DNA of 64,000 nt from an uncultured Candidatus Saccharibacteria bacterium (GTDB lineage: Bacteria > Patescibacteriota > Minisyncoccia > Phycocordibacterales > UBA2100), in the NCBI GenBank assembly GCA_964633425.1, contig CAZWFX010000006.1, forward strand, positions 4,955 to 68,954, read 5' to 3'. The position numbers and the translations under genes are program-made. Shown one piece after another: positions 8,349-62,801 of this stretch; the first letter of the stretch is position 1, and each line of letters starts with the position of its first letter. The notes beneath the pieces are model-generated. The model ran no database searches. It saw nothing but the letters and a program-made list of their open reading frames with translations, and was not told the DNA's origin.

Positions 8349-8433
8349 GGAGGGGTGGCAGAGTGGTCTATCGCACCTGTCTTGAAAACAGGAGTCTCGC
8401 AAGGGACCAAGAGTTCGAATCTCTTCCCCTCCG
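8349..8433 (+). tRNA. tRNA-Ser (anticodon TGA), long variable arm, no encoded CCA
   Basis: Hand fold: acceptor GGAGGGG/CCCCTCC, anticodon stem CCTGT/ACAGG with loop CTTGAAA, variable arm AGTCTCGCAAGGGACC, T arm AAGAG-TTCGAAT-CTCTT. Confidence 0.85.
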
Positions 8434-8446
8434 CAATGATTCAAAG

Positions 8447-8468
8447 AAACGCCTTCGGGCGTTTTTTT
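8447..8468 (+). terminator. rho-independent terminator after tRNA-Ser
   Basis: AAACGCC-TTCG-GGCGTTT followed by a T run. Confidence 0.75.
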
Positions 8469-8556
8469 GATTCACCATTGCGAGCAAGGGGAAGAAACTC
8501 GAGCGTGAGCGGCGGAGGCTCCATCAGCAGATGGAGCGACTCGGACAGGTCCGAGA

Positions 8557-8584
8557 GGAGTGAGGAGTGAGGAGTGAGGAGCGA
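8557..8584 (+). repeat. 4 tandem heptads GGAGTGA GGAGTGA GGAGTGA GGAGCGA
   Basis: Read directly from sequence. Confidence 0.9.
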
Positions 8585-8627
8585 CGGCGACGAACGAGTG
8601 ATTGCCCGCATCTCTCTCTTCAAAAGG

Positions 8628-12314: not shown

Positions 12315-12386
12315 GCTCCCGTCGTTCAACGGATAGGATGCATCCTTGCGGAGGATGTGATGTAGGTTCGATTCCTGCCGGGAGCA
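12315..12386 (+). tRNA. tRNA-Arg, anticodon read as GCG (hand fold), no encoded CCA
   Basis: Acceptor GCTCCCG/CGGGAGC, anticodon stem CATCC/GGATG with loop TTGCGGA, T arm GTAGG-TTCGATT-CCTGC. Confidence 0.8.
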
Positions 12387-12395
12387 CAATGCAAC

Positions 12396-12419
12396 AAAAT
12401 CTGCCGAAAGGCAGATTTT
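12396..12419. terminator. bidirectional terminator after tRNA-Arg
   Basis: AAAATCTGCC-GAAA-GGCAGATTTT. Confidence 0.7.
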
Positions 12420-12472
12420 GTCGTTGCACGACCGAGCAGAGTACCCGCGCGCTCTGCGTGCAGGAATCGAAC

Positions 12473-12550
12473 GTAGGAGCAATGTGAGGCCAACAGGCCG
12501 AGCAGCGAGGCGGGTTCGCGGAAATGCGTTTGCGACAGCAAATGCGCTAT
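12473..12550. repeat. structured intergenic element, divergent copy C
   Basis: GTAGGAGCAATGTG, GGCC-AACA-GGCC, GCGAGGCGGGTTCGCGG, GCGTTTGC-GACA-GCAAATGC. Collinear with copies A and B. Confidence 0.5.
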
Positions 12551-12569
12551 CCGTGACTGCACTGCTTTC

Positions 12570-17609: not shown

Positions 17610-18572
17610 ATGGTCCTTTCGATCCTGAAGTGGGTAGCGATCGCGATGGTCTTGTCACTCTTTGCGCTGTGGTTATGGCAGGGAGGCTATTGGAAAATCG
17701 CGAACTACGCACAGATCATTCCGAATCCGCTCGACGCAACATCAACGAGCGGAGGCTTGTATCAACTACCGGGGCAACCTGATTTTTTTACAATCGACGA
17801 CACAACGTCCGCTCCGGATGAAATGGAGTACGGGGCGGCTGACTACGGCAACGCGAGTGACGCGCTCTACCAGGGCGGTACGTATGATCCGAACGCGACA
17901 CGTTCACCCTATGCTGGATTCATCGAGCTGCAGATCGGCGGCGCTGATCGACCGGACGTGAACGGCGAGTATGTGGTGATCCGCGCGTCCGACTTCGTGA
18001 CACTCCCCATCCCTGTTTCCGGTTGGTCCCTGAAAAGCGCATACACGGGTCGTCGTGCGATCGTACCGCTCGCAGCGTCGCCCTTTTACCAGGGAGTCGT
18101 GAATACTGTTGAGCCTATCGAGCTCTCATCCGGTGAAAGCGTGATCCTTTCAACAGGGGTATCCCCCGTCGGCGTGTCGTTCCGCGAAACTGTTTGTACC
18201 GGATACCTCGGCCAAACACAGCAGTTCTCGCCCGCTCTCTCGAACAGCTGCCCGCGTCCGACCGATCTGATGCCGCGCTCGAACGAAAATGCGGCACGGT
18301 ACGGCGCACGTTGCCTCGACTATGTAGAACGTCTGCCGCAATGCAGTTTCCCGACTATCTTTCCGAGCGATCTGAGCGATGCATGCCGAAGCTTTCTGAC
18401 GACCGCATTTACGTACAACGGATGCACGCAGGTATACGGCTCGCGGAGCGGCAGCGCCATGAGCACATGGCGCGCCTATTACGCTTCGGGCGAAGAACTG
18501 TGGCAGAACGAGCACGATTCGATCGTGCTCACCGACGAACAAGGTCGTACGGTCGCATCTGTCAGTTACTGA
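17610..18572 (+). CDS. secreted protein with lamin-tail-like (LTD) domain and Cys-rich C-terminus
   Basis: N-terminal TM. GFIELQIGG..NGEYVVIRAS..VSGWSLKS resembles the LTD pattern. ATG 17610 lies 6 nt after a perfect TATAAT. Confidence 0.5.
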   Translation: MVLSILKWVAIAMVLSLFALWLWQGGYWKIANYAQIIPNPLDATSTSGGLYQLPGQPDFFTIDDTTSAPDEMEYGAADYGNASDALYQGGTYDPNATRSPYAGFIELQIGGADRPDVNGEYVVIRASDFVTLPIPVSGWSLKSAYTGRRAIVPLAASPFYQGVVNTVEPIELSSGESVILSTGVSPVGVSFRETVCTGYLGQTQQFSPALSNSCPRPTDLMPRSNENAARYGARCLDYVERLPQCSFPTIFPSDLSDACRSFLTTAFTYNGCTQVYGSRSGSAMSTWRAYYASGEELWQNEHDSIVLTDEQGRTVASVSY

Positions 18573-19847: not shown

Positions 19848-19923
19848 GCGCTCATAGCTCAGTTGGTAGAGCAGCTCCCTTTTAAGGAGACGGTCCCAGG
19901 TTCAAATCCTGGTGGGCGCACCA
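19848..19923 (+). tRNA. tRNA-Lys (anticodon TTT), CCA encoded
   Basis: GCGCTCA..TGGGCGC acceptor, loop CTTTTAA, T arm CCAGG-TTCAAAT-CCTGG. TATAAA 11 nt upstream. Confidence 0.9.
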
Positions 19924-19927
19924 GATA

Positions 19928-20055
19928 GAAAAACAGCACCTGCGTGCTGTTTTTCTTTACTGGTGCGGGCCGGAGCGATGTCCCGCAAGCTTGCGGGACC
20001 GCGAGGCGGGGCCTGCGACCAAAACTTTGCGACGGCAAAGTTTTGAGTTGTGGGC
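19928..20055. repeat. structured intergenic element, copy A (terminator-like hairpin + two covarying hairpins + conserved linkers)
   Basis: See findings. Collinear with 62661-62786. Confidence 0.7.
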
Positions 20056-20210
20056 CACGTGTGCGAGCTGGAGGCGCGGCGACCGCGAGTCGGGGTCGCG
20101 GAATTTCGAGGCCGACGGGCCGAGAAATATCTGTGACACATGTTTATTACCCCGATAAACACCCCTCGCCTTTCCCTACCCGAGTGATACCGTCTCCGTG
20201 GAACCACTCA

Positions 20211-20876
20211 ATGGAGGCCCGCATGCCGGCCAACTTTCCGAGCTTTGATGTATACCGCTCGCTCTATCGCAGGAATTACCACGGTCGCAGTATCGATGAG
20301 TTTTTCGAGTTATCCGGCTCGCTTGTCGGTCGTACGGTGCTGGATTTGTGCGGCGGAGACGGCAGTCTCTCGCAAAAGGCGCTGAAGTTCGGTGCCTCGC
20401 GAGTGGCGCTCGTCGACGAACAAGAGGCTATGATCCCGCCCGAGGTGGAGGCAAATCCGAATATCGACGTCCACATCTCGAGTGCGGAAGCGTTTCTCTC
20501 CGGCACCAAGGCGGGAGGCTTCGATCGGATTTTCTGCCGTCAGGCGATGAACTACTGGTTTAACGAGCGGAGTGCAGCACGGCTTGCACACGCGCTCTCG
20601 CTCGACGGCGTGCTCGTGTTCAACACGTTCAACCAAAAGCCGCCGGTTGAGCCGTTCGTGAATCGATACGAACTCGACGGGCGGCGGTACGTGGAGACGA
20701 GCTGGCTCGTCGACAACGACGTGCACCATGTGCAGTTGTGCGAGGGCTTCCCCGCTCACTACTCGTGGTGCCGCTGGATCGCACCCGAGGAGTATCTTCG
20801 AGCACTGTCGCCGTATTTTGATGTGCGCGTGACGTCTCACGAAAAAGCGAGCCTGTATCGGTGCACGAAGCGCTGA
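20211..20876 (+). CDS. class I SAM-dependent methyltransferase
   Basis: VLDLCGGDGSL (motif I) and D-E acidic loop. The track ORF start at 19944 runs through the noncoding repeat, so ATG 20211 or 20223 is preferred. Confidence 0.65.
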   Translation: MEARMPANFPSFDVYRSLYRRNYHGRSIDEFFELSGSLVGRTVLDLCGGDGSLSQKALKFGASRVALVDEQEAMIPPEVEANPNIDVHISSAEAFLSGTKAGGFDRIFCRQAMNYWFNERSAARLAHALSLDGVLVFNTFNQKPPVEPFVNRYELDGRRYVETSWLVDNDVHHVQLCEGFPAHYSWCRWIAPEEYLRALSPYFDVRVTSHEKASLYRCTKR

Positions 20877-22378: not shown

Positions 22379-22493
22379 GCCTTGGTAGCTCAGTGGTAGA
22401 GCGTCGGAATTACACCTGCGAATCTGAAGTAGGTTGTGTAGCCGAAAAAGAGACGCAGTCCGAAGGTCAGGGGTTCGATCCCTCTCCAAGGTG
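22379..22493 (+). tRNA. tRNA-Val(TAC)-like gene interrupted by a 43-nt insertion (22416-22458) 3' of the anticodon loop
   Basis: Removing 22416-22458 leaves a 72-nt cloverleaf. It has acceptor GCCTTGG/CCAAGGT (G1.U72), D arm GCTC-AGTGGTA-GAGC, anticodon stem TCGGA/TCCGA with loop ATTACAC, variable AGGTC, and T arm AGGGG-TTCGATC-CCTCT. Confidence 0.55.
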
Positions 22494-36668: not shown

Positions 36669-37397
36669 ATGGGACTCGCTGAATTAGCGCTTGTTAACGC
36701 CCCGCACGGTAAAAGCAAACTGATCGTGGACTGCACCTACCGCCGTACACGGTTCAATCCGACCAGGGATAAAGGTAGACCGATCGCAGCAAAGTTCGCC
36801 TACTCGATGGCGGCACATCTGCTGAAACTTGATGCCGGCCACAGCGAGCAAGAGATCGCATCGCAGCTCGAGTGTTCGGAATCGCAAGCGAAAACATTCG
36901 TTGAATACGGTGCACACGTCGTGAACCGCTCCGGCGAAGCCCAGGAACTGCTCGCCACGATACGCGACGACGTGCATTCGAGACTCGAGAAGGTCGGTAT
37001 GCAGTTCATGCTGGACTCGGTCGACATGGAACCGCCACCGCCGACGACCCTCGAAATTCCGGACGAGGTGCCGAAGATCATTGCACTCGTTGCGAGAATA
37101 CTGGGTGTTGCGCCCGGTCTCCTGACGGGAAAGTCAAAGCGCTTCCCTGAGATGCATGCGCGCCACATCGCTGTGGCGATTGTGCAGTTCAAGAAGCCTA
37201 CGATGTCGCGTCCGAAGATCGGCTCGTACTTCGGCAAGCGCGACAACACGACGATACTGTCGTCTCTCCAAAAGATCGACCGGATCGTCCGAGGCGAGGA
37301 CGACGACCCTGTACTGTTCAAAAAGATCGAACATGTGCGCGAAAAACTGGGTCTGGATATTAGCGCGTTCTATTTTGTTCCAAAGAAACCTGCGTGA
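36669..37397 (+). CDS. DnaA domain IV (Bac_DnaA_C HTH)-only paralogue with novel N-terminal region
   Basis: The C-terminal ~95 aa, IIALVARILGV..KSKRFPEMHARHIAVAIVQFKKPTMSRPKIGSYFGKRDNTTILSSLQKIDRIV, parallels the DnaA DNA-binding domain. AAGGGAG upstream of the ATG. Confidence 0.6.
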   Translation: MGLAELALVNAPHGKSKLIVDCTYRRTRFNPTRDKGRPIAAKFAYSMAAHLLKLDAGHSEQEIASQLECSESQAKTFVEYGAHVVNRSGEAQELLATIRDDVHSRLEKVGMQFMLDSVDMEPPPPTTLEIPDEVPKIIALVARILGVAPGLLTGKSKRFPEMHARHIAVAIVQFKKPTMSRPKIGSYFGKRDNTTILSSLQKIDRIVRGEDDDPVLFKKIEHVREKLGLDISAFYFVPKKPA

Positions 37398-40114: not shown

Positions 40115-40854
40115 TCTATCGCCCGCCACAACATATCGAAATACGAGCGCCGCGTTTTAGCTAACGCGGTGCTTTCGATGACGATGATCATGTCATCCGG
40201 TCGCGGTGAAATGAGGGCGGTGAATTCTTCCCCGATAACTTCCGTGTAGGGCAGCGCGTAGCCCTTGGGCAAAAACTTCGACACCCGGTTCTCTGTCGGA
40301 TCTTTGCGGACGATCATACGCGCGTACGGAGAATCAACGATGAGCTGCATGCTCTGCAGTTTGCGTATCTTCTTTGCCTTAATGATCTCGTCGAGAATGT
40401 ACTTTTCGGATACGAAATCCAGGAAGTTCTCCCCTTCCGTGATGATGCGATACCCGTCTCGCGACTCAAAGATGCGGTCCCATACCGCCTTGAACCCAGA
40501 CGGTCCGTGAAAAAAGTACACCCCGGGTTTTTTGTAGTGAGAGAGTACGAGCGCATCAAGCGCAGGCAAGGATTCCTCGAACATCTGTAATCGCTCGCGC
40601 GCCCGTTTCAAAAGCACCGACGGCGGGCATGCACGCAGATACTCGCGCTTCGCGCGTTTTACCTCCTGGAACGCACCTGCATCCAAAAGCTCCTCGAGTA
40701 CATAGTATGCGGTCGTGCGTTTGATTCGAGCGCGACGTGCGAGCTCCAGGATCGTGCACTCCCCGAGTTCCAGCCCAGCGCGGTAGAGACGTGCGGCCTT
40801 TTCGGATAGTCCGGCTCCTCGAATCGCTTCATCAATGGAATAGGCCTTGGCCAT
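40111..40854 (-). CDS. TrmB-family transcriptional regulator
   Basis: GLSEKAARLYRAGLELGECTILELARRARIKRTTAYYVLEELLDAGA. GATACT 8 nt upstream of the ATG. Confidence 0.7.
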   Translation of the reverse strand: MAKAYSIDEAIRGAGLSEKAARLYRAGLELGECTILELARRARIKRTTAYYVLEELLDAGAFQEVKRAKREYLRACPPSVLLKRARERLQMFEESLPALDALVLSHYKKPGVYFFHGPSGFKAVWDRIFESRDGYRIITEGENFLDFVSEKYILDEIIKAKKIRKLQSMQLIVDSPYARMIVRKDPTENRVSKFLPKGYALPYTEVIGEEFTALISPRPDDMIIVIESTALAKTRRSYFDMLWRAID

Positions 40855-40874
40855 TACCCCACAGTATCAAAATG

Positions 40875-40891
40875 TGTCGAAAAAATCGACA
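40875..40891. promoter_or_regulatory. inverted repeat TGTCGA-N5-TCGACA just upstream of the TrmB -10 element (operator candidate)
   Basis: Read directly. Lies between divergent genes 40854(-) and 40957(+). Confidence 0.35.
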
Positions 40892-40956
40892 GAATGTGCG
40901 GCTTTTCGCGTGCGAAAGCCCTACGCTTACATACGGAACATACAGAGGAGGTTCCT

Positions 40957-41340
40957 ATGCTCCAACTGATTGCGCACCTGATCGGCGACTACATGCTTCA
41001 GAGCGGATGGATGGCGAACAACAAGACGAAGCGGCACTTCCCTGCGCTCGTACACGCACTCGTCTACTTTGTGCCGTTCTACCTGATCTTCAACCCGTCG
41101 CCGCTTGCGGCGAGCGTGATGGTCGGCACGCACTTTGTGATCGACCGGTGGCGGCTCGCGCGATATCTCGCCTTTTGCAAAGAGTTCATTGCACCGCCGA
41201 AAAATTGGCCGCACTGGGCAGACCACGCGGAGACGGGATTCCACAAGGACACGCCCGCGTTCCTTGCGGTGTGGCTGATGATCATCGTCGACAACGGGAT
41301 GCATCTGGTCATCAACTATCTGTGTCTCACGTATCTGTAA
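40957..41340 (+). CDS. DUF3307-family membrane protein
   Basis: MLQLIAHLIGDYMLQSGWMA (HxxGDYxLQ). AGAGGAGG upstream of ATG 40957. Confidence 0.65.
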   Translation: MLQLIAHLIGDYMLQSGWMANNKTKRHFPALVHALVYFVPFYLIFNPSPLAASVMVGTHFVIDRWRLARYLAFCKEFIAPPKNWPHWADHAETGFHKDTPAFLAVWLMIIVDNGMHLVINYLCLTYL

Positions 41341-41399
41341 CCGCGCCATCAAGGGGGCCCGCATCTGCGGGCCCCTCGTTTGTACCCTATACTGAGGCC

Positions 41400-41900
41400 A
41401 TGAAAGTGCTCGCGATCGATCCGGGATACGGCAGGTGCGGCATGGCGGTTGTGGAGCGAGTCGGAACCAAAGACGTGCTCCTGTATTCAACGTGCGTCGA
41501 GACAGACGCGAAGACTGAATTCCCCGAACGACTCCGCGAGGTTGTTGCACGCTGCGAATCGCTCCTTGCAGAACACACCCCGGACCACATGGCGATGGAA
41601 AAACTGTTCTTCAAAGCGAACCGCACGACCGCACTAAAAGTCGCGGAGGTCCGCGGCGCAATCATCAATGCCGCAGCAGTTCATGCGGTACCGGTACACG
41701 AGTATTCACCCGCCGAAGTAAAGAGCGCGACAGCGGGCTGGGGAGGTGCCGATAAAAAACAGATAGCAACCATGATCCACGCACTCGTAAAGATCGAAAA
41801 GCCGATCAAGCACGATGACGAATACGACGCGATCGCGGTCGGCGTCACGCATCTTGCGTGTTACCGGAGTCTATTGACGCGACAAGGCAAGGTGGCATAG
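41400..41900 (+). CDS. ruvC: crossover junction endodeoxyribonuclease RuvC
   Basis: MKVLAIDPGYGRCGMAVV..MAMEKLFF..YSPAEVK..DEYDAIAVGVTH. The track ORF start at 40737 is an upstream read-through artefact. Confidence 0.85.
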   Translation: MKVLAIDPGYGRCGMAVVERVGTKDVLLYSTCVETDAKTEFPERLREVVARCESLLAEHTPDHMAMEKLFFKANRTTALKVAEVRGAIINAAAVHAVPVHEYSPAEVKSATAGWGGADKKQIATMIHALVKIEKPIKHDDEYDAIAVGVTHLACYRSLLTRQGKVA

Positions 41901-42855: not shown

Positions 42856-45285
42856 ATGAGCAGACTCCGTGAAGTGCGTCGTCGCACCGGTTATCACTTT
42901 AATCGCCTCCCCGAGTGGGTGCGTCTATCGCTGACCCTACTCGCCGCTCTCACCTTCTTCGGTCTCGGCGGCATAATCGCATGGGCCACGTTCATGCCGA
43001 TCCCTGATATCAATAGCTTCGAGAACCGACAGGTTGCCGAGAGCACCAAAATCTACGATCGCACCGGCAATATCGTGCTCTACGATGTGCACGGATCGGT
43101 GCGCCGAACATCGGTTCCCCTCGAGCAGATCTCACCGAACATCCAAAAAGCGACTATCGCGATCGAGGACGCGTCGTTCTACGAACACCACGGCTTCCGT
43201 CCGACCCGCTTCCTCCTTGCCGCGTGGGCCGACGTGACGACCGGATCGTTCGGTCAGGGCGGCTCAACGATCACACAACAGGTCGTTAAGAATGCGCTCC
43301 TCACGCGCAAAAAGACCCCGACCCGAAAACTACAAGAGATTATTCTTGCCGTCCGTCTAGAGCGCGTGTATTCAAAAGACGAGATTCTGAGTGTCTACCT
43401 CAACGAAAACCCGTACGGCGGCACGATCTACGGCGTTGAAGAGGCGGCACAGTACTTCTTTGGCGTTGATGCAAACAACGTATCGCTCGCACAGGCTGCA
43501 TACCTTGCGGCCCTTCCGCAGGCACCGACCTACTATTCTCCCAACGGTAACCATCGTGATGCACTTGATGCTCGAAAAGACCGGGTGCTGTTCGAGATGC
43601 TTGATCACAAAATGATCACTCAAGAGGAGTACAACGAGGCGAAAGCGGAGCAGGTGCAGTTCCTCGACGTGGCCGAGGCAGGTATTAAAGCCCCGCACTT
43701 CGTGTTCTATATCCGCGAGTACCTCGAGAGTAAGTACGGCGTGGACTCGGTGCAAAAAGAAGGTCTCAAAGTAATTACTACCCTCGACTACGACCTGCAG
43801 AAAAAGGCGGAAGAAACGGTCGCCGCATATGCACCCGGAATGGAAAAGAATTTCGACGCATCAAACGAAGGCATGGTTGCGATTGAGCCAAAAACCGGTC
43901 AAATCCTCACGATGGTCGGCTCGCGCGGATACTTCGACGACTCAATCGACGGAAAAGTGAACGTTGCGGTCGCGCACCGCCAGCCGGGCTCCTCCTTCAA
44001 ACCCATCGTCTACGCCACCGCATTCCAAAAGGGCTACACGCCGGAAACCGTCGTGTTCGACCTCAAAACACAGTTCTCGACCACGTGTGGTGTGCAGGAT
44101 GTACTTAACGACGAGCCGCCGTGTTACAGCCCCGAGAACTTCGACGGCAAGTTCCACGGCCCTATCTCACTGCGTAATGCGCTCGCGCAGTCCATGAACA
44201 TCCCCGCCGTAAAAACGCTCTACCTTGCGGGCGTCGAAGACTCAATCGCGATGGCACAGAAGCTCGGCATAACCACACTGACCGACGCGTCACGCTATGG
44301 TCTCACGCTGGTACTCGGAGGCGGCGAAGTGACACTCCTCGAAATGACGGGCGCGTACAGTGTGTTCGCAAACGACGGATTGAAAAATCCTCCCACCGGA
44401 ATCTTGCGTGTCGAAGACCGCGACGGCGCCGTGCTCGAGGAATACAAAGACACATCTGAACAGGTACTCGACCCCGAGATCGCCCGTCAGGTAAACGACG
44501 TACTCTCTGACAACGCGGCAAGAACGCCCGAATTCGGTGCCGACTCACCGCTCAACTTCTCTGAATTCAAGGTGGCGGACAAAACAGGTACAACAAACGA
44601 TTTCCGCGACGTGTGGATCATCGGATATACCCCGGGTATTTCGGTCGGTGCGTGGGCGGGTAACAACGACAACAGCCAGATGCAGAAAAAGATTGCCGCG
44701 TTCATCATCGCACCGATGTGGCACGAATTCATGTCGTACGCGATGAAAAAATACCCTGCGGAACCGTTCACTGAGCCCGCTCCTGTTGCCGACATAGATT
44801 CGCTGCCCCCAGTTCTACGTGGAGAGTGGAATACGAACCCTTCGCAAGGTGTCCACGAGATCTTGTACTGGGTGAACAAAGAAAACCCTCGCAGCGGCAG
44901 CGGAGGAAGCACAAATGACTCGCAGTTCCGCTATTGGGACTACCCGGTGCAGTTGTGGGCAAGCGGACAGGTTGCTTCATCCACCGGATCAAGCGGGCCG
45001 GTCGAGGGTATTCCCGAGAGCGTGTCAGCGTTCCGTGTTCTCTCTCCTACTGCAGGATCATTCGTCCCGGTAGGCCGACCGATGACAATCACTTCGTACT
45101 ACCCGAATCCCGGTAATGTCATACAGATCACGTACCTGATCAACGGAATTCCGGTCGGAACCGCCAACCAGCCCCCGTTTTCGGTCACCCATGTACCGAA
45201 TATCCCCGGACCATCGAGTCTCCAGGCGATCGTGCAAACGACAGCCGGCACGGAAACCTCGCAGATACCGTTCACTGTTCAGTAA
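42856..45285 (+). CDS. class A penicillin-binding protein (GT51 transglycosylase + transpeptidase) with C-terminal Ig-like extension
   Basis: EDASFYEHHGF, GGSTITQQ, RKLQEI, SSFKP, KTGTT. ATG 42856 lies 8 nt after TACAAT. Confidence 0.85.
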   Translation: MSRLREVRRRTGYHFNRLPEWVRLSLTLLAALTFFGLGGIIAWATFMPIPDINSFENRQVAESTKIYDRTGNIVLYDVHGSVRRTSVPLEQISPNIQKATIAIEDASFYEHHGFRPTRFLLAAWADVTTGSFGQGGSTITQQVVKNALLTRKKTPTRKLQEIILAVRLERVYSKDEILSVYLNENPYGGTIYGVEEAAQYFFGVDANNVSLAQAAYLAALPQAPTYYSPNGNHRDALDARKDRVLFEMLDHKMITQEEYNEAKAEQVQFLDVAEAGIKAPHFVFYIREYLESKYGVDSVQKEGLKVITTLDYDLQKKAEETVAAYAPGMEKNFDASNEGMVAIEPKTGQILTMVGSRGYFDDSIDGKVNVAVAHRQPGSSFKPIVYATAFQKGYTPETVVFDLKTQFSTTCGVQDVLNDEPPCYSPENFDGKFHGPISLRNALAQSMNIPAVKTLYLAGVEDSIAMAQKLGITTLTDASRYGLTLVLGGGEVTLLEMTGAYSVFANDGLKNPPTGILRVEDRDGAVLEEYKDTSEQVLDPEIARQVNDVLSDNAARTPEFGADSPLNFSEFKVADKTGTTNDFRDVWIIGYTPGISVGAWAGNNDNSQMQKKIAAFIIAPMWHEFMSYAMKKYPAEPFTEPAPVADIDSLPPVLRGEWNTNPSQGVHEILYWVNKENPRSGSGGSTNDSQFRYWDYPVQLWASGQVASSTGSSGPVEGIPESVSAFRVLSPTAGSFVPVGRPMTITSYYPNPGNVIQITYLINGIPVGTANQPPFSVTHVPNIPGPSSLQAIVQTTAGTETSQIPFTVQ

Positions 45286-45291
45286 ATCTCA

Positions 45292-45327
45292 AAACAAAAC
45301 GACTCCCGGAAGGGAGTCGTTTTGTTT
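45292..45327. terminator. bidirectional terminator between PBP (+) and dnaN (-)
   Basis: 16-bp stem AAACAAAACGACTCCC-GGAA-GGGAGTCGTTTTGTTT. Confidence 0.8.
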
Positions 45328-45338
45328 GTATGGGTACA

Positions 45339-46436
45339 TTAGCGATTGAGTGGCATCACGAGGTACATGAATGATGCGTCGGATGCGCCACGGATAACGA
45401 GCGGACGACCCGGCCCCGCAAACGAGAGCACTACACTGTCACTTTCTACACTCGGGAGACATTCGGAGAGGTAGCCAATATGAAAGTTAATGTCTAGGTC
45501 CTCACCGGTAAGCGCTGCGTCAATCGAATCGGACATCTCGCCCACATCATTCGAGCGTGCAGTCGCTGTGAATATCTTTTTCTTCGGATACACATGGAGA
45601 CCTACGTGCTGGTCATTACCAGAAAAAACGCGTGCCTTGCGAAGCATTTCAGACAGATCGGCCTTCAGGAGTGTTGCCTCGGTTGCCGTAGTCTTTGGCA
45701 CGATCTCTTTGTAGTTCGGGAATGTTGCGTCTACGACACGGGAAACGAATCGTACGCCGCCCCCGGAGAGCACCAGCTGTGCATCCTCTGTCGCGATCGT
45801 AACCGTGTCGTCATCGATCTTATCGAGGATGTGTGTGAGCTCAAGCGCGTGCTTGAGCGGAATGAGGAGCTCACTTTCCTCGCTCGCTCCGACACCGGTT
45901 ATCGTCTTTTCGGCAAGACGGAACGAATCAGTCGCTACGGATACCATCGAACCGTCTTTGATGACGATATAGATGCTTCCGAGGTCAGGACGGATCATTG
46001 AGGGTGATGCTGCATAGCTAACAGCCTGTAATCCGCGTGTAATTCGCTCCCTATTCATCGTAATACCCTTTTTAGATGTCGTGGTAGGGAGTACCGGGAA
46101 TTCAGCTTGTGGCACGGCTTTTATGAGGGTTTTCGTTCCGCGTGATTCGATCAATAAGTTTCCATCCTCTGCCGAGAGCGTAACGGTATCGCCGTTGATG
46201 GATCGGATCGTCTGAGAAAGAATCGTTGCCGGCACTGCGATCGTTCCCTTTTCCTGAATATCAGCAGGTACCGTGATCTCAACCCCTGCTTCAAGATTAG
46301 TTGCACGTATCACCAGTTCTTTATCCGCATCGATAAGGATGCACGAAAGTATCGGGAGTGATTCTTTTTTCCCCACTACCCTCTCCGCGATCAGAATCGC
46401 ATTTAGGATTTTTTCTTTCGTCGTTCCTATCTTCAT
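45339..46436 (-). CDS. dnaN: DNA polymerase III beta sliding clamp
   Basis: 365 aa with three-domain clamp pattern, located directly downstream of dnaA. Confidence 0.92.
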   Translation of the reverse strand: MKIGTTKEKILNAILIAERVVGKKESLPILSCILIDADKELVIRATNLEAGVEITVPADIQEKGTIAVPATILSQTIRSINGDTVTLSAEDGNLLIESRGTKTLIKAVPQAEFPVLPTTTSKKGITMNRERITRGLQAVSYAASPSMIRPDLGSIYIVIKDGSMVSVATDSFRLAEKTITGVGASEESELLIPLKHALELTHILDKIDDDTVTIATEDAQLVLSGGGVRFVSRVVDATFPNYKEIVPKTTATEATLLKADLSEMLRKARVFSGNDQHVGLHVYPKKKIFTATARSNDVGEMSDSIDAALTGEDLDINFHIGYLSECLPSVESDSVVLSFAGPGRPLVIRGASDASFMYLVMPLNR

Positions 46437-46673
46437 ACTTATTTAATTAAAGACTATTACTACTACTAGTGACTGGGATAACGGGATAACTCAGAAAGAG
46501 CTAGGAAATACGCGATAATTTCTGTCTCCGACACCCGTGGATAACTGCTGCGCGAGGACTGTGTCGTCTGTGGACGAACGTGCGTTGGAGAAGTACACCG
46601 TGCTATTCATTGAGACTTCATAGTGTTGTACCCTGCGTTCTTCCCCTGTTTGTGCAGGTGATATCCACATAGG
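46437..46673. other. dnaA-dnaN spacer with DnaA-box-like sites and AT-rich tract (possible second half of a bipartite oriC)
   Basis: CGTGGATAA 46536-46544 and ATATCCACA 46661-46669 (each 8/9 to TTATCCACA). AT-rich 46439-46470. Confidence 0.4.
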
Positions 46674-48038
46674 CTAGGCGTGAATCAGCGCGCGAATGTG
46701 GTCGAGCTCCTGTTCGAGCGAGCTCGAATTTTTCATCTCCTCCTTAATTTTCTCGCACGAGTGAATAACTGTCGTGTGATCGCGGCCGCCGAGCTTCTCG
46801 CCGATCGACGGATATGAGACTGCGAACTCTTCGCGCAATACGTACATAATGATCTGGCGGGGCTTCACGACCTCTTTCTTGCGAGTTTTCTCGTAGATGC
46901 TCTTCTCCGGCACTTCGTAGTACTGCGCGATACGGCGCACGACTTCGTCGATAGAGACTCCGCGGTTCGGTTTTACGTTGTGTTTGATGAGTGCACGCAC
47001 ATCCGCGTGCGAGATAGCCTTCCCTTTCAGTTGGGACTTACAGACGATCATATTGAGTACTCCCTCGAGCTCACGGATGTTACCTCGTACGTTCTCGGCA
47101 ATGTACTGAATGATGTCTGCGGGAATGGAAAAGCCGTGTTGCTCGATTTTTGCGCCTATGATGGCGGTTCGGCTCTCTACATCAGGCTCAGGGATCTCTG
47201 CAATCATGCCACCCGAGAACCGTCCTTTCAGGCGGTCTTCAAAGCCCGGCAACAGTGCCGGATGCTTGTCTGACGAGAAAACGATCTGTTTATTGTTGTC
47301 GCGCAGAGCGTTGAAGAGGTGGAACAGTTCCTCCTGGGTCTTCTCTGTATTTGCGATGAACTGGACGTCGTCCATGATGAGCACGTCGTACTGGCGGTAC
47401 TGGTCCTTGAAGTTATTGGCGTGACCCGCACGTACCGCGTTGATGTAGTCGATCGCGAAGCGCTCAGACGTTACGTAGAGCACCTTCTTGTTCGCGTGTG
47501 ACTTCTTGAAGTAGTTCCCTATCGCCTGGATAAGGTGAGTCTTTCCGTGACCGGTCGATCCGTAAATAAAAAGCGGGTTATATGCGAGTCCCGGGCGCTC
47601 AAGTACGGCCTTGGCCGCAGCGTGAGCGAGCTGGTTAAACGGGCCCACGACGAATGTCTCAAATGTGTAACGCGGGTTCAGGTTGTCGCGCTTGTCTATA
47701 TAGAGCGACTGGAGGTCGAACGAGGCGTTCTGAGGTGCCTCCTGCTTTTGTGGCTTGCGATCCTGCTGCGGTGCTGTGCGGTGCACTACGTATTCGACCG
47801 TTCGGATGGACGAATCGAGCGAGCGAAGCGCTTTCATGATGAGCTTGTGATGCTTGTCGGAGAGCCATTCCTTCACGATCTTGGACGGAACGGCGACCTG
47901 CACTGTTCCCCCGTCGCGGTGAGCGACATCAGTATTACGAAACCATGTTCGGAACGATGCTTCAGAAGTGCCCAACTCTATCTGTACGAGTGCGTTCTGC
48001 CATAGTTCACGGTTTGTCATCATAATTGTGGGGTACAT
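46674..48038 (-). CDS. dnaA: chromosomal replication initiator protein DnaA
   Basis: GSTGHGKTHL, IMDDVQF, RGNIRELEG, C-terminal ..IGEKLGGRDHTTVIHSCEKI. Confidence 0.95.
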   Translation of the reverse strand: MYPTIMMTNRELWQNALVQIELGTSEASFRTWFRNTDVAHRDGGTVQVAVPSKIVKEWLSDKHHKLIMKALRSLDSSIRTVEYVVHRTAPQQDRKPQKQEAPQNASFDLQSLYIDKRDNLNPRYTFETFVVGPFNQLAHAAAKAVLERPGLAYNPLFIYGSTGHGKTHLIQAIGNYFKKSHANKKVLYVTSERFAIDYINAVRAGHANNFKDQYRQYDVLIMDDVQFIANTEKTQEELFHLFNALRDNNKQIVFSSDKHPALLPGFEDRLKGRFSGGMIAEIPEPDVESRTAIIGAKIEQHGFSIPADIIQYIAENVRGNIRELEGVLNMIVCKSQLKGKAISHADVRALIKHNVKPNRGVSIDEVVRRIAQYYEVPEKSIYEKTRKKEVVKPRQIIMYVLREEFAVSYPSIGEKLGGRDHTTVIHSCEKIKEEMKNSSSLEQELDHIRALIHA

Positions 48039-48218
48039 CGTCTATGCAGTGAGAACAATGCTCCGCATTATACGCACTTCGTGCTCGTATGGAATCTTGA
48101 CCGAGGGTCTCGGGGGTGTTCACAACTATGTGGATAACGCGGGGATATGTTTTTTTGCTCTCGTTGAATTTTTTTTCGCACGTTGCGTTTTTCATCTGCC
48201 TGTCGCATACTGCGCCGC
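48039..48218. other. putative oriC (dnaA-rpmH spacer)
   Basis: Perfect DnaA box TGTGGATAA at 48129-48137, followed by the T/A-rich tract TATGTTTTTTTGCTCTCGTTGAATTTTTTTT (48146-48176). Gene strand bias switches here. Confidence 0.6.
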
Positions 48219-49462: not shown

Positions 49463-49525
49463 AAGCATCACGTTTGATTGGGCGTCAAGTCGCGCACCGT
49501 TTGAATTGAGAGTATAGTGCCCTTC

Positions 49526-49993
49526 ATGCACGCAACGGTTGAAACAATTTTGAAGGAACTGCTTGCCTCGATGGGGCTTGGGACCGCCAAAGTCAGCCAC
49601 GCAGAAGTCGCCGGTCAGGCCATTTTTTCCATACAGACTGAGGATCCGGCCGAGGCTCGAGCACTCATCGGGGCGCACGGCGATACGGTTCACGCTATCG
49701 ATATGTTGGTAAAGAAGATCGCAGAAAAGCGACTCTCTGCCGAGGACTCCGAGAATATGCACTTCCTTGTGGATGTGAACGACTACCGAGTGAAGCAGAT
49801 CAAGGACCTGCAGACCAAGGCTCTTATGATGGCGGAGCGCGCCCGATCATTCCAGTACGACGTTGAGCTCTCCCCCATGAGCGCTTACGAGCGACTCATC
49901 GTGCACACGACGCTCCAGGATGCCCCGAATGTAAAGACCGAATCAGCCGGCGAAGGCCGAAATCGTCGCGTAGTGATCAAATACGCTGCGTAA
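49526..49993 (+). CDS. jag: Jag/KhpB-like RNA-binding protein (KH + R3H)
   Basis: C-terminal LSPMSAYERLIVHTTLQD (R3H). ATG 49526 lies 7 nt after TATAGT. Confidence 0.75.
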   Translation: MHATVETILKELLASMGLGTAKVSHAEVAGQAIFSIQTEDPAEARALIGAHGDTVHAIDMLVKKIAEKRLSAEDSENMHFLVDVNDYRVKQIKDLQTKALMMAERARSFQYDVELSPMSAYERLIVHTTLQDAPNVKTESAGEGRNRRVVIKYAA

Positions 49994-50004: not shown

Positions 50005-50037
50005 CAAGAAGACGGCACGACGGTGCCGTCTTTTTGT
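50005..50037. terminator. bidirectional terminator (jag + / T4SS-like operon -)
   Basis: AAGAAGACGGCAC-GACG-GTGCCGTCTTTTT. Confidence 0.75.
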
Positions 50038-50514: not shown

Positions 50515-51747
50515 TTATTCACTGATTCTGAGCAGCCAGAGTGACTTATCCGCAGCATCGCGGAATCCGATCGCTGAGCCCGTTTCGTCCATCATCGGCT
50601 CCTCTACATCAAAGTCGGTGCGAGTATCCGGTACGAAGAACCGTGTCGCTGTTCCGGCTGCAGCTTCCACTCGCCACCAGATATCGTGCGTATGAACTGC
50701 CCCTGCGTACCAGCCGGCAAGGTACCCGTTCTTCGGAGATTCCGCCGGCACTGCGCAGTACGCTATGAGTCCGGCACCCGGTGCCCATACGCATTTGTCC
50801 GCCGTCGTCTCGAGCGGCAGTCTGATAGCATCGCTACCCTCGTTCTTTACATAGAGTGCGAGCTTGCCGTCCTCGACCGCCCCGTAGAGATAGGCCTCTG
50901 CGGTGTCATGGTAGCGAACGGTCAGGCCGTTCACGTTCGAGACGAGCGGCTTCATGGTGCCTGACGGCGAGACGATGAACGAGTACCCCGATGCGGTGTC
51001 CGATGCAGCCTGGACGATAACAGCTCGACCGTCGGCAAGCGCCTGCGCCCTCCACTGATACAGCGGTGAGACGAAAATCTTTTTTGTGTTTGTCCCCTTC
51101 CAGCCCGAAGAGACGCCGATCGAGCCCCCTTCTGCAAGTTTTGCGATGTAGAAAATATTCTTTGCGGTCGTCTGGTAGTTGGGAGTGTCCAAGGCAACGA
51201 TATTCTGCGGCAGGTACGTGCCTTCGAGCACATTCGGTGTCGAGGTCGAGGTGATCACGCTGGTCGTTGCAATGGAAGCGGCGAATGTTGTCACCACGTC
51301 CTGCTCGTTGGTCGTGCGCAGTATCACGTCACCCGAGCGGCTGAACCGCGCATCCATAATCTTCGGCATGAGTGTGTTCGTGAGACGAATGATGCTGCTC
51401 GTGTTGGGGTCGGCTCGCATGATGTTACCCGTTGCTCGCTCTGCGATGTAGATTGATGCTCCGGACGGACCGAATCCGAACCCTGCGATCGGAGTGCGGG
51501 TCACATGCCACAGGCGCGGTGCGCGGCTTCCGATCTCAGAGGTGGACGTACCGGTATCCCCCGAGATGTTCTGGTAGGTGCTTCCGGCACCGCCCGAGAA
51601 CGAGGCCTCTTCGGTGTTGCCTCGTGCGGTGATCTCGGAGGACGTCTCTGCAGTCTTGTTCTTTATAAAAAAGTACCACCCGGCGGAGCCGCCGATGATC
51701 ACGACCAACAGTGCGACGAGCGTGAATTGAATGATTGAGTTACGCAT
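50515..51747 (-). CDS. anchored extracytoplasmic protein, beta-propeller-like
   Basis: N-terminal TM, then repetitive beta-strand-rich sequence. Start ATG 51747 abuts the upstream stop. Confidence 0.5.
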   Translation of the reverse strand: MRNSIIQFTLVALLVVIIGGSAGWYFFIKNKTAETSSEITARGNTEEASFSGGAGSTYQNISGDTGTSTSEIGSRAPRLWHVTRTPIAGFGFGPSGASIYIAERATGNIMRADPNTSSIIRLTNTLMPKIMDARFSRSGDVILRTTNEQDVVTTFAASIATTSVITSTSTPNVLEGTYLPQNIVALDTPNYQTTAKNIFYIAKLAEGGSIGVSSGWKGTNTKKIFVSPLYQWRAQALADGRAVIVQAASDTASGYSFIVSPSGTMKPLVSNVNGLTVRYHDTAEAYLYGAVEDGKLALYVKNEGSDAIRLPLETTADKCVWAPGAGLIAYCAVPAESPKNGYLAGWYAGAVHTHDIWWRVEAAAGTATRFFVPDTRTDFDVEEPMMDETGSAIGFRDAADKSLWLLRISE

Positions 51748-51748
51748 A

Positions 51749-52759
51749 TTATTTGCCGGTGAACGGGTCAACGCTCGCTCCGGATTGCGTGGAGCCGCCG
51801 AGTGTACCGAATGTCACGTTCCAGAGTCCGTGTGCGTCGAGACGGAAGTTTTTCTTATGAGTGAGCGACAGCTCTATGAGACCGACGCCGCCTTCCGCCC
51901 CGGCGTTGATTGTGAGCGTTGCCGGACGTTCTTTGTTGGCTTCTACGGGGGCCTTGTTCACACGCCAGATGTAGGTGAACTGTTTGTCGTTCGGACCGTC
52001 AGCAAATGCAAAGTACGGGATTGCAGTGAATGTCATTTCGGTGTCTCCGAGGGAGGTCTCGGCGGGCACCGCATTGTGATACATGGTTCCGTAGAGCGGA
52101 TGCTCGAAATACAACTGCGTCATTGGTACAACGGTTGCGATCGCTGCAGTACGGTCGGCGCCGAGCGTCCGGTCGGATGTCGTTACGCTGACGCTGATGG
52201 TGTTGGTTTGTGAAAATTCCGCAACCGGCACGCTGAGCGAGGTCTTTCCGCGTCCGCTCAAGAGCGTCTCCCCGCTCTGTGTCCATGTGTAGACGAGCTG
52301 CGACGCCGGGATCTCTACGCCATCCTTTGCAAAATGCGGCAATGCCTGCAGGGTGATCGAAGCGCCGAGGCTCGGAAGATGACGTCCGCGGTAGAGGCCC
52401 GGTGCGTAGGTATTTGCTTCCCAGAGCAGATCGACAGACAGCGGTATTATGGAAAGCGAAGCGTCGCCGTCCACGCCGTCCACGCGGACCGACATATCGG
52501 CACGCTCTCCGCTTTGCGGCGCCTTCATTTTGAATACAGTCTCACCCTCCCCTTCCGCAACAATAGTTCCGCTGTTGCGCCACGAGATCTGGCGCTGTGT
52601 AAGATCCATCACCGGGCTCTGTACCGTAAGTGTGACCGCTTCACCCGGGCGCGGGTACTGCGGCGTGACGGAAACGAACAACCTCGGTCCATTGAACAGC
52701 TCCTGTGCCGAAGCCGGAAGTGCAAGGAGCAACACGACGAGAAAGACGATGTACCTCAT
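51749..52759 (-). CDS. secreted protein (336 aa), Ig-like beta-rich
   Basis: Signal peptide MRYIVFLVVLLLALPASA. ATGA overlap with virB4. Confidence 0.5.
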   Translation of the reverse strand: MRYIVFLVVLLLALPASAQELFNGPRLFVSVTPQYPRPGEAVTLTVQSPVMDLTQRQISWRNSGTIVAEGEGETVFKMKAPQSGERADMSVRVDGVDGDASLSIIPLSVDLLWEANTYAPGLYRGRHLPSLGASITLQALPHFAKDGVEIPASQLVYTWTQSGETLLSGRGKTSLSVPVAEFSQTNTISVSVTTSDRTLGADRTAAIATVVPMTQLYFEHPLYGTMYHNAVPAETSLGDTEMTFTAIPYFAFADGPNDKQFTYIWRVNKAPVEANKERPATLTINAGAEGGVGLIELSLTHKKNFRLDAHGLWNVTFGTLGGSTQSGASVDPFTGK

Positions 52760-54708: not shown

Positions 54709-54709
54709 A

Positions 54710-55369
54710 TTATTGCTGTTCGAGCGACATCGGCTTAGAGTCCTCGCCCGGATTGAACATCTTGTACAACAGTTCGATCGCCTCTTCGGTACCGAGCTGC
54801 ACCGTGCGTACACCTGTTCGCACGAGTCCCTGCTGCACAATTGAGATGCGCTGCTCGAGCTGCGTAGCCTGCTCTTCAAAGGTACGGTTCTCTTCCGCAG
54901 CGTCAGTTTTCTTCTTCCCGAACGGGAAGATCGAGCCTCCGGAGCTTGTCTGAATAACAGCCGGCGTATACGGCACTACGATGAAGAAGTTCTTAGTCAT
55001 GATGTTGGCCGCCTCAGTGAAGCTTTTGATGAACTCGATGTATTCGCGGATCTGAATCCGCATCAGGTCATCGAGCTGGCCTTTATAGGCCTCTTCGAGT
55101 GTTGCGATGTAGGGGCGAATGTCGAGTTGTCGGGACTGCACGAAGATCTGGCATGAAAAGTCGAGTGAGTTCAGGAAGTTCTGAAATTGCACGATGAAGG
55201 CGGTCTGTTCGTCCTCGGACTTCAGTGCAAAGTTGATCGACGATGCGAGCAGGATCGCGCGCAGACCGTTGTCTTTCATGACCACGATACCGTCGCGCAC
55301 CTCCTTGATCGGCACGAACTCCTGTGTCGACTTGTTCTCGCTGCGCGTACTGTTCTGGGTCTGCGGCAT
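54710..55369 (-). CDS. stand-alone VirB4 N-terminal-domain-like protein
   Basis: FVPIKEVRDGIVVMKDNGLRAILLASSINFALKSEDEQTAFIVQFQNFLNSLDFSCQIFVQS parallels the N-terminus of Gram-positive-type VirB4 and of the adjacent virB4. Confidence 0.55.
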   Translation of the reverse strand: MPQTQNSTRSENKSTQEFVPIKEVRDGIVVMKDNGLRAILLASSINFALKSEDEQTAFIVQFQNFLNSLDFSCQIFVQSRQLDIRPYIATLEEAYKGQLDDLMRIQIREYIEFIKSFTEAANIMTKNFFIVVPYTPAVIQTSSGGSIFPFGKKKTDAAEENRTFEEQATQLEQRISIVQQGLVRTGVRTVQLGTEEAIELLYKMFNPGEDSKPMSLEQQ

Positions 55370-55371
55370 AG

Positions 55372-55878: not shown

Positions 55879-55886
55879 GCAGTATT

Positions 55887-55896
55887 AGTATACCCC
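55887..55896 (-). promoter_or_regulatory. GGGGTATACT promoter-like 10-mer, 8 nt upstream of ATG 55878
   Basis: Plus strand reads AGTATACCCC. Confidence 0.5.
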
Positions 55897-55951
55897 GCGT
55901 CGAACGCTGCCCGCTGCGCTTTTCACAGTCGTAACCGTGATGCGCGCGTAA

Positions 55952-56539: not shown

Positions 56540-56542
56540 ATA

Positions 56543-58861: not shown

Positions 58862-58872
58862 ACAGGTGGTCG

Positions 58873-61304: not shown

Positions 61305-61310
61305 ACTAAA

Positions 61311-61320
61311 AGTATACCCC
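61311..61320 (-). promoter_or_regulatory. GGGGTATACT promoter-like 10-mer
   Basis: Plus strand reads AGTATACCCC. Confidence 0.45.
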
Positions 61321-62239: not shown

Positions 62240-62245
62240 GATCAC

Positions 62246-62320: not shown

Positions 62321-62662
62321 ATGTCGTATACTTCATACATGCGTGCGATCGCAGGTACACTCGCGGGGATCATACTGCTTATGGCCCCTACCGCTGTAGT
62401 GGCACAAACGAACCCCTTCGGCGGACCGATCACGCAGATCATTTTTTGCTACAACCAGGCGATTTGGACGACCGTCGGCCCCCCGGTGGGAGGCATCTAT
62501 ATATGGACGCCCTCGACGGTTACATACCAGTTCGGACCGCCGGCACATGTGGGCCAGTACCTGCTCGGGCTCTACGGTGCCCCCTACTACTGCCTCGTAT
62601 CGATCGTTCCGATCATCGTGTTTGCAGGCATCTCCATAACCATGATGGGCAGTAGCCAATGA
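62321..62662 (+). CDS. small secreted/membrane protein (113 aa)
   Basis: Signal peptide AGTLAGIILLMAPTAVVA and C-terminal TM. GAGGCGGG upstream of ATG 62321. Confidence 0.45.
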   Translation: MSYTSYMRAIAGTLAGIILLMAPTAVVAQTNPFGGPITQIIFCYNQAIWTTVGPPVGGIYIWTPSTVTYQFGPPAHVGQYLLGLYGAPYYCLVSIVPIIVFAGISITMMGSSQ

Positions 62663-62786
62663 AAAAGAGTGCTTGAGCACTCTTTTTCTTTAGGCTACTG
62701 AGCCGGAGCGATGTCGCCAAAGCTTTGGCGACCGCGAGGCGGGGCCTGCGACCGAGTCGCGCGACGGCGCGACGAGAGTTGTGGGC
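62661..62786. repeat. structured intergenic element, copy B
   Basis: Collinear with 19928-20055. See findings. Confidence 0.7.
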
Positions 62787-62801
62787 GCAGTCAGTAAACT
62801 C

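Follow-up and report, generated by a model that had tools for sequence, protein, structure and literature searches.

Tandem two-armed units behind tRNA-gene terminators of Paceibacterota: a candidate family of structured RNA modules

What is the hairpin-rich element that lies behind a tRNA-Lys gene of an uncultured bacterium, and on which strand, as RNA or as single-stranded DNA (ssDNA), does it fold? The question was raised by a first-pass annotation, made from the letters alone, of a 64,000-nucleotide stretch (hereafter the window; contig CAZWFX010000006.1 of assembly GCA_964633425.1, deposited as a Candidatus Saccharibacteria bacterium), which described copies A, B and C of an element with conserved loops and covarying stems. 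The closest named homologues of the ksgA gene in the window are from Candidatus Kaiserbacteria and Paceibacterota, which assigns the window to a bacterium of the candidate phyla radiation. We found that the element consists of units of about 95 nucleotides (nt) with two arms, one to four of which stand in tandem at a locus, and comparison of the sequences clearly points to selection for this two-arm fold in the sense strand. Our preferred, still tentative explanation, to which we assign a probability of roughly 0.45, is that the units are lineage-specific structured RNA modules of Paceibacterota (Kaiserbacteria-like members of the candidate phyla radiation, CPR), which sit on the sense strand behind tRNA-gene terminators, would be made by transcriptional read-through and would be bound by a factor.

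A consensus structure, with compensatory changes in 26 of its 31 pairs, was derived from 12 units with RNAalifold, and a covariance model (R1) was built from it. With filters off, cmsearch found exactly four clear units in the window, each on the + strand. They are given here together with the tRNA gene ahead of copy A.

12458..12563, + strand: unit C, diverged (cmsearch 52.6 bits, match 12464-12563)
19848..19923, + strand: tRNA-Lys(UUU) gene (ARAGORN; Rfam tRNA, 70 bits; fold)
19960..20058, + strand: unit A1 (cmsearch 101.6 bits, match 19960-20061; fold; consensus structure)
20059..20143, + strand: unit A2, type-2 (cmsearch 44.6 bits, match 20064-20143)
62693..62799, + strand: unit B (cmsearch 86.8 bits, match 62693-62792; folds)

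When the sites were read and aligned, all six resemblances that the first-pass annotation had listed between copies A and B were present, with identical unpaired blocks and fully compensated stems. Both copies open with GAAAAA, a stem of 6 base pairs (bp), a 4-nt loop and TTTTTCTTTA, both carry GCCGGAGCGAT, and each contains a perfect 20-nt palindrome around AGCT in which three of the five variable pairs differ on both arms. A and B also share the 20-mer CGCGAGGCGGGGCCTGCGAC, which occurs in the window at 20000 and 62733 only, where the chance expectation is 0.05 even with three mismatches; a hairpin with a GACG loop is found in both (stem of 11 bp in A and 7 bp in B), and both finish with AGTTGTGGGC. 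The fold z-scores against shuffled sequences were -8.1 for A and -6.7 for B. The 'degenerate second unit' suspected behind A proved real, since it is what the covariance model recognizes as A2. Other statements had to be revised. The 'linker' GCCUGCGAC and the 'end' GUUGUGGGC, taken to be unpaired, pair with each other on the + strand through three G-U wobbles, and the second hairpin is therefore a long two-part helix. Its stems, described as unrelated between the copies, represent two sub-lineages (CAAAAC.. and CGAG..), each of which recurs in other genomes. Finally, the statement that every copy abuts an A5-hairpin-T5 terminator holds for the first unit of an array and fails for later ones.

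Relatives, labelled here by locus, came from synteny and from pattern scans. Syntenic ksgA loci were taken from relatives at 67-90% protein identity (L001, L004, L019, L020, L021, L022). Scanning one genome per species for a 20-mer returned six true matches in four metagenome-assembled genomes of Paceibacterota (L007-L011, L013), together with three chance matches in high-GC coding DNA, and a 22-mer scan of metagenomes added four further loci, all on short contigs (L015-L018). Viral contigs gave 0 matches in two pattern scans. Loci other than those of the window contained 18 additional units, frequently in tandem: three units and a fragment at L008, and two or more at L007, L009, L011 and L017.

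Covariation was measured on 16 units from ten loci (alignment A5), all from outside the window and from other Paceibacterota genomes. Standard pairs occupied 93.0% of the cells compared to 66.5 +/- 1.5% after column shuffling, figures somewhat inflated by the fitting of this alignment to the model but separated by a large margin, and none of 500 shuffles reached the observed value. Sliding the 3' partner by 1-3 columns reduced pairing to 34-41%, and 27 of the 31 pairs, distributed over all five helices, had changed on both sides. The fold is robust, and the earlier view that the copies reflect a selected structure rather than a recent duplication is borne out in units from elsewhere.

With regard to the strand, the + strand was the more stable one in 22 of 22 units, with a mean advantage of 10.6 kcal/mol, and the paired cells held 38 G-U or U-G combinations versus only three A-C or C-A. 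Every unit has the orientation of its upstream gene. The dnaA and dnaN genes and the minimum of the cumulative GC skew place the replication origin near 46-48 kb:

45339-46436, - strand: dnaN (origin neighbourhood)
46674-48038, - strand: dnaA (origin neighbourhood, 44000-48100)

Copies A and C lie to the left of the origin and B to the right, hence on opposite replichores, yet each stands in the sense of its upstream gene. This argues that it is transcription, yielding RNA, rather than replication, yielding ssDNA, that exposes the folded strand.

The units, whose 5' bases are mostly GUGCG, share a common anatomy. Arm 1 comprises, in order, three unpaired nt, helix P1 (GCC/GGC), a nearly invariant GGA/GA internal loop with the potential for tandem G-A pairs, helix P2 (GCG/CGC), an AU bulge, and P3, the variable 'palindrome' hairpin with its variable loop. 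A GG junction leads to arm 2, which is made up of a G-U-rich basal stem of 9-10 bp, a bulged A, a variable distal stem, a GACG, GGCG or GACA loop and an AC tail. In A1, arm 1 spans 19969-20007 (with the 20-nt palindrome at 19980-19999) and is followed by GG, while arm 2 spans 20010-20056, with the basal stem GGCCUGCGAC/GUUGUGGGCC containing three G-U pairs, an 11-bp distal stem, the GACG loop at 20031-20034 and the AC tail. The corresponding basal stem of A2 is GUCGCGGA/UCUGUGAC, and its GACG loop lies at 20114-20117. Unit B is of the A1 type with different stems, and the diverged unit C has GGAG at 12476-12479 and a GACA loop at 12527-12530. Several unpaired bases are constant across species, namely G13, G16 and C47 in 16 of 16 units and the GRCG loop in 15 of 16, from which it follows that some trans-acting factor probably reads the units. 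A closing helix (P0, 5' GUG.. with ..CAC 3') would be formed by UACUGA/UCAGUA in B (possible closing strand at 62791-62796), by GUGCAG (12458-12463) with CUGCAC (12557-12562) in C and by UUUUG/CAAAA in L015.

The first-pass annotation overlooked the placement of the units behind tRNA genes, their tandem arrays and a pairing past the terminator with the 3' end of the gene. All ten true matches found by context-blind patterns have a tRNA gene on their own strand 36-40 nt ahead of their start, and the genes in question are those for tRNA-Lys, Arg, Ile, Val, Leu, Ala and, in four cases, Glu; this linkage is likewise robust. Within the window, tRNA-Lys precedes copy A and tRNA-Arg precedes copy C. 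A protein gene takes this position only at the B locus and its orthologues (L001, L004, L019), where the unit lies between two convergent genes, a small secreted-protein open reading frame (ORF) and ksgA. Units B and C and those of L007, L008 and L017 all lie between convergent genes, and at L017 and L008 the convergent gene has a terminator of its own ahead of the units. In the one close relative among the methyltransferase homologues, tRNA-Lys is inverted and no unit is present. The flanking genes of C and B are the following.

12315-12387, + strand: tRNA-Arg(GCG) (ARAGORN)
62225-62662, + strand: ORF upstream of unit B (sequence)
62802-63578, - strand: ksgA (Pfam RrnaAD)

The approximately 37 nt separating the gene and the first unit correspond to a terminator module that is distinct from the units and consists of an A-tract, a hairpin and a T-tract in a strand-symmetric arrangement. 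At unit loci its stem is extended, in that the gene's final bases (X0) pair with those that come first past the T-tract (X'). The modules of the window, unstranded except where indicated, are as follows.

12394-12421, + strand: tRNA-Arg terminator hairpin ACAAAATCTGCC-GAAA-GGCAGATTTTGT, with a short extension (module to 12432; hairpin scan; fold)
19917..19967: copy A terminator module (sequence; fold -33.8 kcal/mol)
19917-19924: copy A X0, CGCACCAG, pairing with X' (CTGGTGCG, 19960-19967; RNA form CUGGUGCG)
19929-19933, 19934-19949 and 19950-19959: copy A A5, hairpin CAGCAC/GTGCTG with loop CTGC, and T5CTTTA (sequence)
62650..62700: copy B terminator module (sequence; fold -31.9 kcal/mol)
62650-62657: copy B X0, CAGTAGCC, in the last codons of ORF 62225-62662
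62662-62687: copy B hairpin, A5-GAGTGC-TTGA-GCACTC-T5 (sequence)
62693-62700: copy B X', GGCTACTG (sequence)

In the fold of copy A, the extended stem takes its 5' strand (X0) from the final bases of tRNA-Lys(UUU), CGCACCA, and the pairs of this module are Watson-Crick throughout. The extension follows the gene end from locus to locus:

tRNA-Arg, L007: X0 GGCAC, X' GUGCC
tRNA-Ala, L011: X0 UCCAC, X' GUGGA
tRNA-Glu loci: X0 GUCA, X' UGAC
ORF end, window: X0 CAGUAGCC, X' GGCUACUG
ORF end, L001: X0 GAGCUCAC, X' GUGAGCUC
ORF end, L004 and L019: X0 CAGUUCUC, X' GAGA(G/A)CUG

The hairpin of L010 is perfect over 24 bp. The mean duplex energy of X0 with X' was -12.2 kcal/mol for cognate and -6.3 kcal/mol for non-cognate combinations, and the observed mean was reached in none of 20000 permutations; at the ORF locus, X' tracks synonymous changes in the last Ser codons across four genomes. 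Right after the terminator many units show GUGCG, and the variants GUGCC, GUGGA and UUGAC match the tRNA end. The same kind of extension (CCCA/UGGG) was observed at a tRNA-Val terminator that lacks a unit (L010, 4072-4144, - strand); X' therefore belongs to the terminator and not to the unit, and tRNA terminators of this lineage seem to carry such an extension as a rule. With five G-U among 378 pairs, the terminator modules are nearly all Watson-Crick and hence strand-symmetric, in contrast with the unit bodies. Whichever direction is considered, the extension lies outside the hairpin and U-tract; judging from this position, it would have no effect on termination and could form only in read-through RNA or in DNA. 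Further, inverted copies of the 3' part of the adjacent tRNA (acceptor strand and T-arm) were found 70-150 nt downstream of the tRNA, with 18 of 18 nt at L009 (2704-2721) and 15 of 16 nt of the adjacent tRNA-Arg T-arm at 12460-12475 in the 5' part of unit C (z 5.8). The terminator anatomy, a GC-rich stem-loop and a U-tract, was seen by eye at every locus; the T-run being absorbed into the stem, these hairpins were not reported by the consensus scanner. A GACG loop is likewise present in an ordinary terminator (AAGACGGCAC-GACG-GTGCCGTCTT, 50009-50032) downstream of the R3H-domain gene (49517-49993); here no unit follows.

A further tRNA gene of the window is followed by structured sequence:

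8349-8434, + strand: tRNA-Ser(UGA) (sequence)
8349..8625, + strand: tRNA-Ser locus, comprising the gene, a terminator hairpin and a structured trailer (sequence; fold; Tandem Repeats Finder)

Here, the terminator extension reaches the tRNA 3' end and pairs with about 15 nt of it. The trailer (8470-8625) is strongly structured (fold z -6.1), scores only 7.8 bits in cmsearch and holds a unit-like block, GGAG-hairpin(AGCA loop)-GA, together with (GAGGAGT)x3.9. It is at best a distant relative of the units. The perfect tandem repeat itself (8555-8581) amounts to four Shine-Dalgarno-like GGAG motifs, GGAG being also an invariant motif of the units.

The units behave as a family that is gained, lost and exchanged. 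At the B site, the unit is present in the window, L004 and L019 and decayed in L001, and the site is empty in L022 and L021; in L022, whose KsgA is 80% identical, the two stop codons lie directly against each other. The tRNA that precedes a given unit sub-type can differ from genome to genome, and hairpin variants combine as mosaics. At L008 the unit ends alternate (CACAAA, CACUUG, CACAAA) without a repeat, and a target-site duplication was therefore rejected. Identity between the window and the orthologous tRNA-Lys locus L013 (GCA_964512835.1) amounts to 98-100% over the stretch from at least 19023 through the end of A1 and drops to 87-90% past the A1/A2 border (region to 20222); the apparent recombination breakpoint coincides exactly with the border at which A2 is present or absent.

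The units could not be assigned to an RNA class or mobile element already described. Rfam 15 at its gathering threshold returned four tRNA matches and nothing else from the whole window, and at E<=10 the best match to either copy was the KDPG-aldolase RNA with 19.9 bits (gathering score 54.6), the rest being microRNA noise on the terminator hairpin; the first-pass statement that this is not a known RNA family thus stands. ARAGORN made no tRNA call on the units on either strand, nor did we find membership among tRNA, tRNA-like or tmRNA sequences. Full-text literature searches yielded no description of the element, and a phage and plasmid blastn search gave nothing besides a 38-nt chance match to a Rhizobium treZ gene. 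No sigma-70-like promoter was predicted near A, B or C, and Pfam identified no transposase, integrase or reverse transcriptase among 50 ORFs scanned in the window; neither was a Y1_Tnp domain present in the ORFs scanned. Set apart in this way from Rfam and from the literature, the units appear to form a new lineage-specific structured RNA family.

Individual candidates were rejected on their own features. RtT RNA (RF00391) also forms same-strand tandems directly behind a tRNA gene, but it is unlisted at E<=10 and the tRNA-derived pieces are inverted here instead of direct copies. A repetitive extragenic palindrome (REP) or bacterial interspersed mosaic element (BIME) with its REP-associated tyrosine transposase (RAYT) does not agree with direct tandems of two-armed units of about 95 nt lacking a GTAG head, and a miniature inverted-repeat transposable element (MITE) does not agree with a GUG/CAC complement of merely 3-6 bp, weak in support, and with flanks that alternate in L008. 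An integron attC array was dismissed in view of the missing core site and cassettes and of scanned ORFs free of integrase domains, and a group IIC intron in view of the unit length, the lack of an Rfam group II match and a GUGCG that shifts to match the tRNA end. The units located between convergent genes speak against a riboswitch or 5' leader. The tandem G-A candidates between P1 and P2 (GGA/GA) carry a 1-nt bulge and not the three of a kink-turn, and, as judged by eye, the units do not resemble loop E, the signal recognition particle RNA, the hammerhead or group II. Nor are they whole inverted tRNA copies, as clear inverted T-arm or acceptor pieces occur in C and L009 only and the canonical units are dissimilar. 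Lastly, the open frame at 19944-20876 was not accepted as coding, given that its homologues start at 20223 and that the stem substitutions are compensatory.

As promoters of their own are lacking, the units are, we infer, made by RNA polymerase reading through the terminator, and they are probably bound by a trans-acting factor; the steps by which this might work are conjectural. On a very strongly transcribed gene (the small protein gene before unit B is possibly also highly expressed), RNA polymerase would pass the terminator and thus produce unit RNA. In the read-through RNA, the extended stem would form a duplex of 20-26 bp over the discriminator and trailer, and a double-strand endonuclease such as RNase III might cut it and separate tRNA and units. 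The freed units would be stable and offer the invariant unpaired GGAG, CGAG-GCGGGG and GRCG to a trans-acting protein or RNA, with arrays multiplying the binding sites for this putative factor. Several points weigh against the explanation. A good terminator between promoter and units is an odd route for RNA expression, transcription of the units is deduced from sequence, their partner is putative and the RNase III cleavage is conjecture. A2 is missing from L013 in the alignment, and the gain and loss of units among close relatives would be expected of a dispensable or selfish element. On constraint, the match of A1 to L013 is uninformative because it falls inside the recent 98-100% identical block, and we rejected it as a sign of conservation. 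P0, too, was paired in 57.5% of cells versus 48.7% (23 of 500 shuffles; permutation p about 0.03), and given this weak support we dropped it as a firm feature.

A different outcome of the same read-through, which we consider improbable, is that terminator extension and units together constitute a device in tRNA precursors, the units representing either a new class of small RNAs that mimic tRNA or an array of ribozymes that process themselves. The post-terminator bases would then act as an 'anti-acceptor', a rival to the tRNA 5' strand for the discriminator and the 3' acceptor end, the long helix of arm 2 with its A-C would mimic a tRNA acceptor end, and the enzymes that process tRNA 3' ends would excise the units and possibly add CCA tails to them. 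If true, this would couple tRNA maturation to another process in CPR bacteria. Another alternative dispenses with any RNA function. That the units are a selfish or neutral interspersed DNA repeat (REP/BIME, BOX or MITE-like) which settles behind terminators, its hairpins kept by an ssDNA-binding transposase encoded at another place in the genome or by template switching across palindromes, is somewhat unlikely, even though the family is multi-copy and modular with mosaic hairpin variants, forms tandem arrays of variable length, varies in presence between close relatives and places one sub-type behind different tRNAs in different genomes. Template switching that extends palindromes would moreover yield exactly such terminator modules, nearly pure in Watson-Crick pairs (5 G-U/378) and accompanied by inverted copies of gene ends up to 18/18 nt (L009). 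What speaks against a DNA repeat is the strand asymmetry of the unit bodies (38 G-U versus 3 A-C), the nesting of the long-range pairs of P1 and P2, a set of invariant unpaired bases that are not palindromic, and an orientation that follows the upstream gene on both replichores; terminal inverted repeats and a consistent target duplication were not found, the 50 window ORFs scanned contain no transposase, integrase or reverse transcriptase, and there is no phage or plasmid match.

The position of the units, always directly behind the terminator of a tRNA or small secreted-protein gene and mostly between convergent genes, would also suit a post-terminator device acting in cis. Folded RNA or non-template DNA would serve as a second barrier behind very strong promoters, halting or slowing read-through polymerase or blocking exonucleases and thereby shielding the convergent or downstream gene in a compact genome, and successive units would be additive. 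We hold this to be unlikely, since there is no U-tract after the second hairpin, a simple barrier needs neither invariant unpaired bases nor a conserved GRCG loop, and the next gene behind copy A lies on the same strand, only 80 nt away and without a predicted promoter of its own. Very improbable is the proposal of the first-pass annotation, a small RNA of 100-130 nt read from the minus strand and ending at the bidirectional terminator. The A-tract and T-tract flanks would let the hairpin terminate such an RNA, and at B and C the convergent gene must be transcribed antisense through the unit. Minus-strand RNA is nevertheless disfavoured by the greater stability of the + strand (by about 10.6 kcal/mol, 22/22 units), by the G-U excess, as the basal-stem pairs would turn into A-C mismatches (38 versus 3), and by the gene-matched orientation; further, the convergent genes of L017 and L008 terminate before the units.

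As to the surroundings in the window, the ORF before unit B encodes a product of about 107 amino acids that has a membrane helix at its C-terminal end in addition to a signal peptide, and genes resembling a type IV secretion system (T4SS) adjoin it. The T4SS-like cluster (50515-62662) includes a VirB4/TraG-like ATPase (52756-54879) and, assigned by synteny with L001, PrgI-like and TraC-like homologues; the signal-peptide and transmembrane protein that closes it may be a pilin-like subunit. In L021, the Kaiserbacteria relative without a unit at the ksgA site, a large serine recombinase with a Phage_rep_O-like neighbour lies at 1191-2945, and a bAvd/23S_rRNA_IVP gene, of the type accessory to diversity-generating retroelements, lies at 17748-18119 inside the T4SS-like cluster. 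A tRNA-Val(UAC)-like gene at 22379-22493 (+), matched by Rfam with 54 bits and not called by ARAGORN, has a normal cloverleaf into which, on the anticodon loop's 3' side, a hairpin of about 43 nt (CUGCG...CGCAG) is inserted, too short to be one of the group I introns reported for Patescibacteria tRNAs; relatives possess uninterrupted tRNA-Val(tac) genes with different acceptor stems. Among the remaining ORFs, that at 36669-37397 encodes the DnaA C-terminal helix-turn-helix domain alone, separate from dnaA, and that at 40737-41900 (387 amino acids) has a RuvC domain confined to residues 224-372, its N-terminal 220 residues, without a Pfam match, being an extension or the product of a mis-set start, as could be the case.

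To our knowledge, the very small genomes of CPR/Patescibacteria contain little non-coding DNA, and almost nothing is known of their non-coding RNAs. Against this background, a unit family that fills about 100-400 nt behind many tRNA genes, with covariation as strong as in established RNA classes, is of moderate-to-high interest for RNA and CPR biology. Terminator stems that track the tRNA 3' end base for base may bear on tRNA maturation in these organisms, the tracking of X0 by X' pointing either to a quality-control or processing step on read-through RNA or to unusually active palindrome growth by template switching.

Among small RNAs linked to tRNA genes, such as 3'ETS-leuZ (from an external transcribed spacer) in E. 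coli and the tRNA-snoRNA and tRNA-microRNA dicistrons, transcription starts from the tRNA promoter and release is brought about by tRNA-processing enzymes, and the small RNA is located before the terminator or none intervenes. Behind arm 2, the AC tail is similar to the A73-C74 of the neighbouring tRNAs and would fit with this group, whereas the units lie past the terminator and their processing is presumptive. The terminator modules, for their part, are like bidirectional intrinsic terminators in being strand-symmetric (A5-GC stem-T5) and unlike ordinary ones in that the stem extends 8-24 bp past the U-tract into the last bases of the tRNA or ORF.

The closest anatomical parallels are REP/BIME and BOX repeats, which are also intergenic, located behind gene 3' ends or terminators, hairpin-forming and modular, with varying copy and tandem number. 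REPs are, however, single imperfect palindromes of 20-40 nt with a conserved 5' GTAG, often in inverted pairs, whereas the units are two-armed, strand-specific with G-U pairs, arranged as tRNA-linked direct tandems and endowed with unpaired bases that are invariant across species, and no RAYT was seen in the window. The closest functional parallel may be the rtT RNA of E. coli, which is processed from repeat units behind tyrT (PMC3318445) and freed from the primary transcript of the tRNA (PMC3318445; bioRxiv 10.1101/2024.07.17.603846). Like rtT RNA (rttR) and the 178-bp tyrT-distal repeats, our units are tandem, in the same orientation, directly behind a tRNA gene and related in sequence to the tRNA 3' end. 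They differ from rtT in unit length (about 95 nt) and fold, without an Rfam RtT match even at E<=10, in the inverted instead of direct tRNA-derived piece, in the terminator hairpin that separates tRNA and units and in that, where rtT belongs to one operon, they follow many different tRNAs.

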